A stretch of DNA of 14,040 nucleotides from a virus. The stretch's first letter is position 1. Every line of letters starts with the position of its first letter. Shown piece by piece: positions 13,698-14,040 of this stretch. The translations under genes were made by a program, and so were the position numbers. The stretch lies in the UHGV virus genome UHGV-1300783. One strand, 5' to 3'. The notes under the pieces are model-generated. The model was given only the letters and a program-made list of their open reading frames with translations, was not told where the DNA came from and did not search any database.

Positions 13698-14040
13698 CTA
13701 TTCACAATTAGTGATGGCGTATGTATCAAATATATTGCCATCACTAAATACATACCTATACTCAATCTCTCCGCCAAGGTGAATAAATGCTTTCATTTGC
13801 CTGTTGGAGCAAATGCTCGATTTTGAATAATTTCGCATTACACTCTTTAATTTATTTTCTAAGGTTACATCACCATTATAAACTTTTGATAAATAGCTGT
13901 TGTTGTAATTAAGATGCGCTACAACTAAGAGTTTGTTTAGTATTGCATTTATTGAAACAATAGACATATTATCATTCAATTTTATGGGAAGTGACTTTCC
14001 TGCTTCTGATGCAATTTTGTTTGCATGTGCACACATATCC
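13698..14040 (-). CDS. hypothetical protein, partial (5' end beyond window), AT-rich convergent ORF
   Basis: Minus-strand ORF open to the window edge; its stop (13698-13700) directly abuts the gp16-like stop (13695-13697). Markedly more AT-rich than the upstream operon, and the protein is N/S/Y/K/I-rich. Could partly be a composition artefact. Confidence 0.35.
   Translation of the reverse strand, partial: DMCAHANKIASEAGKSLPIKLNDNMSIVSINAILNKLLVVAHLNYNNSYLSKVYNGDVTLENKLKSVMRNYSKSSICSNRQMKAFIHLGGEIEYRYVFSDGNIFDTYAITNCE
13708..13747. repeat. 11-bp perfect inverted repeat (TTAGTGATGGC ... GCCATCACTAA) with 18-nt AT-rich spacer
   Basis: Read directly: 13708-13718 and 13737-13747 are reverse complements. 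Sits 11 nt after the gp16-like stop, inside the 3' end of the minus-strand ORF. No clear U-tract on either strand. Confidence 0.8.

Follow-up and report, generated by a model that had tools for sequence, protein, structure and literature searches.

The window analysed here, the whole 14,040-nucleotide stretch of the virus genome UHGV-1300783, belongs to a prophage of E. coli, a temperate podovirus whose core proteins are T7-like. Among its genes are those for a major head protein, a tail protein and a core protein of the gp14 family; a neighbouring gene carries the annotation 'virion core protein, T7 gp14 family'. At 9276-9375 an assembly gap, filled by 100 N, interrupts the gp15-like transglycosylase gene and leaves it as two ORFs (7406-9565 and 9391-10308); the same gene is one 915-aa ORF in L001, a full-length copy of the locus. 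The right end of the window carries two convergent genes and, inside the second of them, an inverted repeat (IR), arranged as follows.

10308-13697, plus strand: gp16-like internal virion (ejection) protein gene, 1129 aa, matching phrog_342 'internal virion protein with endolysin domain' (E = 4.6e-235); TAG stop at 13695-13697
13693-13702: zero-gap junction of the convergent genes, where the last codons and both stops form a 10-bp perfect palindrome, AATAGCTATT
13698-14040, minus strand: 3' part (114 codons of 146 aa) of the accessory ('moron') gene, WP_000595048.1, phrog_8772; full gene at 9099-9539 in L001
13708-13718: left arm of the IR, TTAGTGATGGC, minus-strand codons GCC ATC ACT AAt, encoding A-I-T-N of the accessory protein
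13719-13736: spacer between the arms, GTATGTATCAAATATATT, 18 nt
13737-13747: right arm of the IR, GCCATCACTAA, minus-strand codons tTT AGT GAT GGC, encoding (F)-S-D-G, the predicted turn of a C-terminal beta-hairpin

In the window the letters run in the order CAGATGAAATAG CTATTCACAA TTAGTGATGGC GTATGTATCAAATATATT GCCATCACTAA ATACATACC. The accessory stop codon (13700-13698, minus strand) directly abuts the gp16-like stop on the plus strand, leaving 0 nt between the genes. This zero gap recurs in all E. coli and Klebsiella homologues, including those that lie beside a diverged gp16-like gene of 964 aa, and also in the homologous loci L025 and L036; L028 and L029 have short gaps, of 1 nt and 3 nt respectively.

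The gp16-like gene is the last conserved gene ahead of a variable cargo region. The match to Escherichia phage EC.W1-9 (99.4%), like that to 102 of the 116 matching E. coli prophages, breaks off exactly at 13697, the last base of the stop codon; beyond it these genomes have another gene, of 283 aa, which is co-directional and begins 1 nt past the gp16-like stop. Only 14 genomes continue past 13697 with the sequence of the window, that is, with the accessory gene. GC content drops from about 50% to 36% at the 13697/13698 junction, and a distant DNA search of deposited phages with the AT-rich tail returned no match. At the Klebsiella phage junction, as in EC.W1-9, the gene that follows the gp16-like gene is co-directional, so that neither is informative about a hairpin between convergent genes. 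In L001 the variable region holds YafO toxins, BRO-N/antirepressor genes and small unknown genes, and it is followed by a tail-fibre gene, holins and an endolysin, all on the plus strand. The preliminary description, which had been drawn from the sequence, placed the IR at an operon end; this is correct in part, given that tail-fibre and lysis genes on the same strand come after the variable cargo.

Several features of the accessory region deserve mention in their own right. YafO-family toxin genes recur there (L001 10101-10646; L002 and L003), sometimes twice, beside BRO-N/antirepressor genes. A 149-aa gene (phrog_9944) diverges from the accessory gene with 12 nt between the start codons (L001 9539-9552), and because the starts are this close, each of the two promoters must fall within the coding sequence of the gene opposite; downstream of the 149-aa gene stands a strong canonical terminator (L001 10015-10032). 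In the Klebsiella prophages L008-L010 (5495-6432) the accessory gene lies 11 nt downstream of a co-directional Arc/Mnt-like ribbon-helix-helix gene, itself divergent from a second Arc-like gene and a homologue of the P22 antirepressor, a layout that resembles the immI region of P22.

The accessory gene starts about 98 nt past the window end. Its homologues, ranging from 82% down to 29% identity, share a signal peptide, four invariant cysteines and the motif LGGEIEY-x-x-VF-x-DG, and in the close ones (64-82% identity) the C-terminus lies two residues past the last cysteine, with the stop at the same position. AlphaFold2 models the mature part of the protein with pLDDT > 90 and predicts that the last strands (124-130 and 136-142) form a beta-hairpin, of which the IR arms encode the turn, (F)SDG, and the end of the last strand, AITN. 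It had been suggested that the overlap with the IR questions the 3' end of this ORF; a conserved 146-aa family with these features, including a confidently predicted fold and a common stop, speaks clearly against such doubt. By Foldseek, the predicted structure is similar to PA3611 and to AspS and EpsS, pilotins of type II secretion (E = 2e-8 to 3e-6, with target-normalised TM-scores of 0.7-0.8). Pfam and PADLOC searches with the accessory protein and its divergent neighbour gave nothing significant, the best hit being a sub-threshold match to Ntox35 (E = 0.056), and no relatives of the accessory protein were found in species-representative genomes. Since the gene occupies the place that sieA has in P22, it is possible that the protein, which its signal peptide and four cysteines mark as secreted, acts in superinfection exclusion or at the cell envelope.

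The arms of the IR are 100% complementary over 11 nt and 18 nt apart, as recovered both by reading the sequence and by a repeat finder, in agreement with the perfect 11-bp repeat at 13708-13747 that was first described. It is the only perfect IR of at least 10 bp in the whole window (loops of 3-30 nt searched). Five of the 11 pairs are G-C, and the centres of the half-sites are 29 bp apart. As a consequence of the abutting stop codons, the hairpin begins 10 nt after the gp16-like TAG on the plus strand, and its other end lies 7 nt before the accessory stop on the minus strand. The overlap with the end of the accessory ORF is real and reaches further than the very last codons that had been pointed out, covering the last 17.

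How unusual such a repeat is depends on the null model. On base composition alone, an 11-bp IR is only moderately unlikely: under a first-order Markov null, repeats of at least 11 bp occur in 8% of random 14-kb windows and in 0.6% of sequences resembling the 343-nt AT-rich tail. Under a stronger null, in which synonymous codons were permuted within the accessory gene with amino acids and codon usage fixed (2000 shuffles), the repeat is clearly non-random. An IR of at least 11 bp arose anywhere in the gene in 0.3% of shuffles (p = 0.003) and in the last 120 nt in none of the 2000 (<0.05%), which upholds the initial impression that so long a stem is unlikely by chance. The gene has a GC content of 32%, and the IR arms use codons that are otherwise rare in it, namely GCC (1 of 11 Ala), ATC (2 of 16 Ile), ACT (1 of 5 Thr) and AGT (2 of 13 Ser). 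Across six zero- or near-zero-gap lineages, only the last 120 nt of the gene fold more strongly than codon shuffles predict: Stouffer z is -6.35 for the strand that carries the gp16-like gene and -3.4 for the sense strand of the accessory gene, compared with +0.56 to -1.70 for the three remaining gene segments on both strands; three of the six lineages share one helix by descent, and the last-120-nt segment was picked after the IR had been seen.

The helix is conserved. It is found in every one of the 11 distinct E. coli/Klebsiella-clade sequences and also in two distant homologues (30% and 39% protein identity), and the seven central pairs are intact in all or nearly all of the 11 distinct helix-bearing sequences, the lineages that share it not being independent. 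In L027 (30% protein identity) the arms read AGTGACGG/CCGTCACT, and a double change has turned a T-A pair into C-G: one half is synonymous (GAT to GAC), the other replaces Ile by Val (ATC to GTC). In L036, 7 Watson-Crick pairs remain. A 94-aa gene has been inserted after the gp16-like gene in L027, and the hairpin is still found 3' of the last gene on that strand. This repeated retention of the IR alongside an intact ORF supports the dual coding and structural element that had been proposed as one possibility. As a separate observation, the inserted ORF (L027 3430-3736) lies between the gp16-like and accessory genes, and a remnant of the gp16-like 3' end, TTATTTCATCTGCT, is still joined to the accessory gene; the end of the gp16-like gene is therefore duplicated, which suggests an insertion by recombination at TTATTTCATCTGCT.

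The main rival explanation is that the hairpin has no function at all and is a by-product, inherited by descent, of the conserved C-terminal beta-hairpin motif F-S-D-G ... A-I-T-x-C, the codons of which are by coincidence each other's reverse complements (AGT/ACT, GAT/ATC and GGC/GCC). The residues encoded by the arms are indeed conserved (S-D-G and A/T-I/V-T), with D133, G134 and T143 invariant or nearly so across the family, and much of the nucleotide conservation is thereby explained by the protein. Changes in the helix also agree with a by-product: two DNA mismatches in L016 are uncompensated, the innermost pair is gone from both strands of L004, and the covariation count over both strands, 1 compensatory cell in 132, is not significant against shuffles (85/500 and 46/500). 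The frequency of such repeats in random 14-kb windows points the same way, as do Providencia-type homologues (178 aa, with a 45-46-nt spacer), which retain the protein motif and have no in-gene IR (longest 5-6 bp, p = 0.83-0.99).

What stands against a mere by-product is, besides the synonymous shuffle, the rare codons of the arms and the restriction of excess structure to the last 120 nt in six lineages, the appearance of other hairpins in the same place. L029 (29% identity) lacks the main helix and carries an unrelated perfect 12-bp IR (p < 0.0005), CATCGTTGAATA/TATTCAACGATG, with a loop of 8; it sits at about 3346-3377, some 30 nt further upstream within this end of the gene. Shorter repeats are found in L025 (8 bp, G+C-rich) and L028 (7 bp). 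The Providencia-type homologues have a GC-rich hairpin in the intergenic spacer, AATCCCGC-loop-GCGGGATT, so that an in-gene hairpin at zero gap alternates with an intergenic one at a gap of 46 nt. As a side note, the L029 repeat takes up the FNDG codons as its right arm and not as its left. Weighing these points, we regard a functionless by-product as unlikely, although it is the alternative to be taken most seriously, and the IR is very probably a selected RNA hairpin within coding sequence at a zero-gap convergent junction.

The hairpin differs markedly between the two strands. Folding energies with z scores, a check that the preliminary description had named, were computed for each strand of the window sequence and amount to -20.1 kcal/mol (z = -6.1) for plus-strand RNA and -15.6 kcal/mol (z = -3.2) for minus-strand RNA, in which the 18-nt loop stays open. 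The plus-strand fold is stronger because the spacer pairs internally: a G.U closing pair is followed by AUGUAU/AUAUAU pairing that leaves a 3-nt loop, giving about 18 bp with one bulge. This inner 6-bp extension is not conserved, and the homologues have 9-12 bp plus an inner stem of 3-4 bp. Over all 11 distinct sequences the plus-strand hairpin ranges from -14.3 to -21.3 kcal/mol, none with a U-tract, and the minus-strand hairpin from -8.2 to -18.6 kcal/mol, the weakest (-8.2 and -10.1) being those of L016 and L036. In these two loci the DNA repeat has decayed, and the plus-strand RNA helix is held by G.U pairs. All three single-sided transitions in the core (GCC to ACC; AGT to AAT in L016; ACT to ACC in L036) produce G.U on the plus strand and A x C on the minus strand, an argument that comprises three substitutions only (p about 0.125). 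The outermost pair shows the opposite trend, with U.G on the minus strand in 7 of the 11 sequences, and is the sole pair to favour that strand.

Neither strand presents the appearance of a textbook intrinsic terminator, as was recognised from the outset. On the plus strand no U-tract follows the stem (tail AAUACAUACC); the statement that both strands lack one holds for this strand and needs amending for the other, where the tail UUGUGAAU is partly U-rich (4 U in 8). A consensus terminator scan called the IR site on neither strand and did call two canonical terminators 900 nt away, and no covariance model of Rfam 15 matched the site at E <= 1. In terms of terminator placement, the hairpin is downstream of the stop for the plus-strand gene and upstream of the stop for the minus-strand gene. 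Beyond it on the plus strand, the 100 nt at 13748-13847 are untranslated, antisense to the accessory gene and contain 23 C versus 14 G with no U-tract. Being C-rich, G-poor and devoid of a U-tract, they are a candidate zone for Rho loading. An excess of C over G beyond the plus-strand hairpin is seen in 9 of 10 sequences, and would equally be expected from the antisense of a purine-rich coding strand. A second plus-strand terminator-like hairpin, at 13794-13815, was considered and set aside, as it is absent from homologues.

Transcripts ending by Rho-dependent termination are known to carry stable stem-loops without U-rich tails and to be enriched for C over G downstream (PMC6061677). Their ends may fall inside downstream coding regions, and the stem-loops protect them against PNPase and RNase II (PMC6061677). 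Both hallmarks of such protective 3' stem-loops are found at this locus: a stable stem-loop near a gene end with no U-rich sequence after it, and a rut-like downstream excess of C over G.

We infer, tentatively and with nearly as much confidence as doubt, that the IR acts as a U-tract-less hairpin of the Rho-dependent kind, protecting or pausing the 3' end of the late (virion) transcript; the transcript, Rho and nuclease steps all belong to this inferred part. Its main role would be on the plus strand, where a hairpin of -14 to -21 kcal/mol stands 10 nt after the gp16-like stop. Polymerase passing this stop would produce untranslated, C-rich RNA antisense to the accessory gene, and plus-strand transcription would then end diffusely, in a Rho-dependent manner, or continue. 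Exonucleases working in the 3'-to-5' direction would trim the RNA back to the hairpin, which would thus fix and protect the 3' end of the late mRNA. The hairpin would be accommodated within the last 17 accessory-gene codons, at positions where changes are synonymous or conservative, its place inside coding sequence following from the absence of intergenic DNA between the two genes. For the accessory mRNA, the minus-strand version of the repeat may contribute some weak termination or pausing. Counting against a 3'-end role on the plus strand are the tail-fibre and lysis genes further downstream on that strand, because of which late transcription may need to pass the site rather than end there.

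An alternative that turns the strands around is that the IR is a weak intrinsic terminator of the accessory gene itself, on the minus strand, which would stop antisense transcription of a prophage-expressed gene from running into the virion genes. Phage morons classically bring their own terminator. The intergenic hairpin of the Providencia-type homologues has the better U-tract on the accessory-gene strand, where it is a canonical GC-rich hairpin with a U-rich tail, suggesting that this strand is possibly the one served. In the window, the minus-strand hairpin of -15.6 kcal/mol is followed by the 4 U of its 8-nt tail, and the U.G outermost pair in 7 of 11 sequences also favours the minus strand. 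Such a terminator would nevertheless be oddly placed, as the hairpin ends 7 nt before the stop codon, and release 7-9 nt downstream would therefore yield accessory mRNAs with a truncated or missing stop codon. The unstructured 18-nt loop, the weak minus-strand helices of L016 and L036, and the failure of a simple scan to detect the site while calling the two canonical terminators 900 nt away further reduce its appeal, and we consider a terminator of the accessory gene improbable.

Less probable again, to the point of being distinctly remote, is processing of the late polycistronic RNA by RNase III at this stem, in which case cleavage would decide what becomes of the virion mRNA upstream or cleave the antisense part. 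The 18 or so base pairs with one bulge in the plus-strand window sequence and the T7-like nature of the virion core genes would suit such a site. E. coli RNase III substrates typically have roughly 20 bp, and the 9-12 bp plus 3-4-bp inner stem of the homologues are shorter than a typical substrate; the lack of an Rfam match likewise does not favour it.

The distribution of the repeat bears on whether it could act as DNA. A 63-nt segment containing it occurs once per genome in exactly the 14 of 5426 E. coli genomes that bear the accessory gene; within the fetched loci the palindrome pattern lies inside the accessory gene only, and none of the 102 related prophages whose junction leads into other cargo has it. 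Among 2.9 million viral contigs scanned, one extra match appeared, which is unrelated and due to chance. Being single-copy and confined to one gene, the IR is not a repeated element or a general junction site. A dispersed palindromic element, REP-like or MITE-like, was accordingly rejected, there being one copy per genome and no recurrence at other junctions. The preliminary description had advised looking for the same palindrome elsewhere in the genome and at related junctions, where none appeared outside the accessory gene; its notion of a recombination or module-junction site is not supported in the sense of a general site of that kind, and that of a protein-binding palindrome is judged unlikely. 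Action at the DNA level, as the operator of a dimeric regulator, a recombinase site or a module-exchange site, is thus highly improbable: a sharp mosaic junction 10 nt away and a promoter-like TTGCCA-16-TATACT on the plus strand (13735-13762), overlapping the right arm, can be cited for it, but half-sites with centres 29 bp apart do not share one face of the helix, DNA symmetry is eroded in L016 and L036, where the RNA still pairs, and promoter-like sites in the region are below chance expectation (2 found versus 5.1). The promoter-like sequence itself is sigma-70-like, with 10 of 12 matches, and points antisense into the accessory gene.

Returning to the selected RNA hairpin, three solutions appear within one small protein family: the helix over the S-D-G/A-I-T codons, the 12-bp helix of L029 and the intergenic hairpin of Providencia. 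It is conceivable, though we lean towards doubting it, that a junction hairpin has repeatedly been written into accessory coding sequence where convergent phage genes lost their intergenic DNA. If true, one 40-nt stretch would encode both a protein beta-hairpin and an RNA hairpin, and RNA pairing would co-constrain codon choice, even at conservative changes such as Ile to Val accompanied by GAT to GAC. Should the main reading of the hairpin be right, the locus would be a clean, small case of RNA-structure constraint over protein-coding sequence in a tightly packed prophage, and it would suggest how the mRNA ends of late operons are set beside oppositely transcribed accessory genes. In practical terms this touches on annotation and engineering, as recoding or deleting the accessory gene could alter the stability of virion-gene mRNA. 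The element itself is of a known type, leaving knowledge of terminators and RNA 3'-end hairpins unchanged.

Among known systems, the closest likeness is to the protective stem-loops of Rho-dependent transcripts, which are stable, lie just past a gene end, have no U-rich tail and show C over G downstream, and for which a location within the coding sequence of the next gene is allowed. The present hairpin differs in lying in a convergent gene without intergenic space and in the late operon of a prophage. With the bidirectional terminators of convergent genes it shares its position where two transcription units meet, and the hairpin in the 46-nt Providencia spacer is exactly such an arrangement. 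Unlike intrinsic or bidirectional terminators, the IR has no U-tract on the plus strand and a poor one on the minus strand, a stem with 5 of 11 G-C pairs, an 18-nt loop on the minus strand and a hairpin upstream of the minus-strand stop.

Its surroundings recall the P22-like phages, whose genes for ejection proteins are separated from the tailspike gene by a variable stretch, the 'ant moron' region, with sieA, mnt, arc and ant in it (PMC8022706, PMC2629481). Terminators of so far unassigned roles have been predicted within late operons (PMC8022706, on the intra-operon terminators of phage L). As in the P22 region from gene 16 to the tailspike gene, compared here by description, variable and mostly oppositely transcribed cargo directly follows the ejection genes, and in Klebsiella relatives the accessory gene comes shortly after an Arc/Mnt-like gene; unlike in P22, the virion genes are T7-core-like and the accessory protein is not SieA. 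Finally, the lambda sib/tI retroregulator and the RNase III sites of T7 are also phage hairpins located 3' of a gene that set mRNA fate after read-through, as is proposed here for the late transcript, whereas the conserved stem at this junction is too short to be of their kind.
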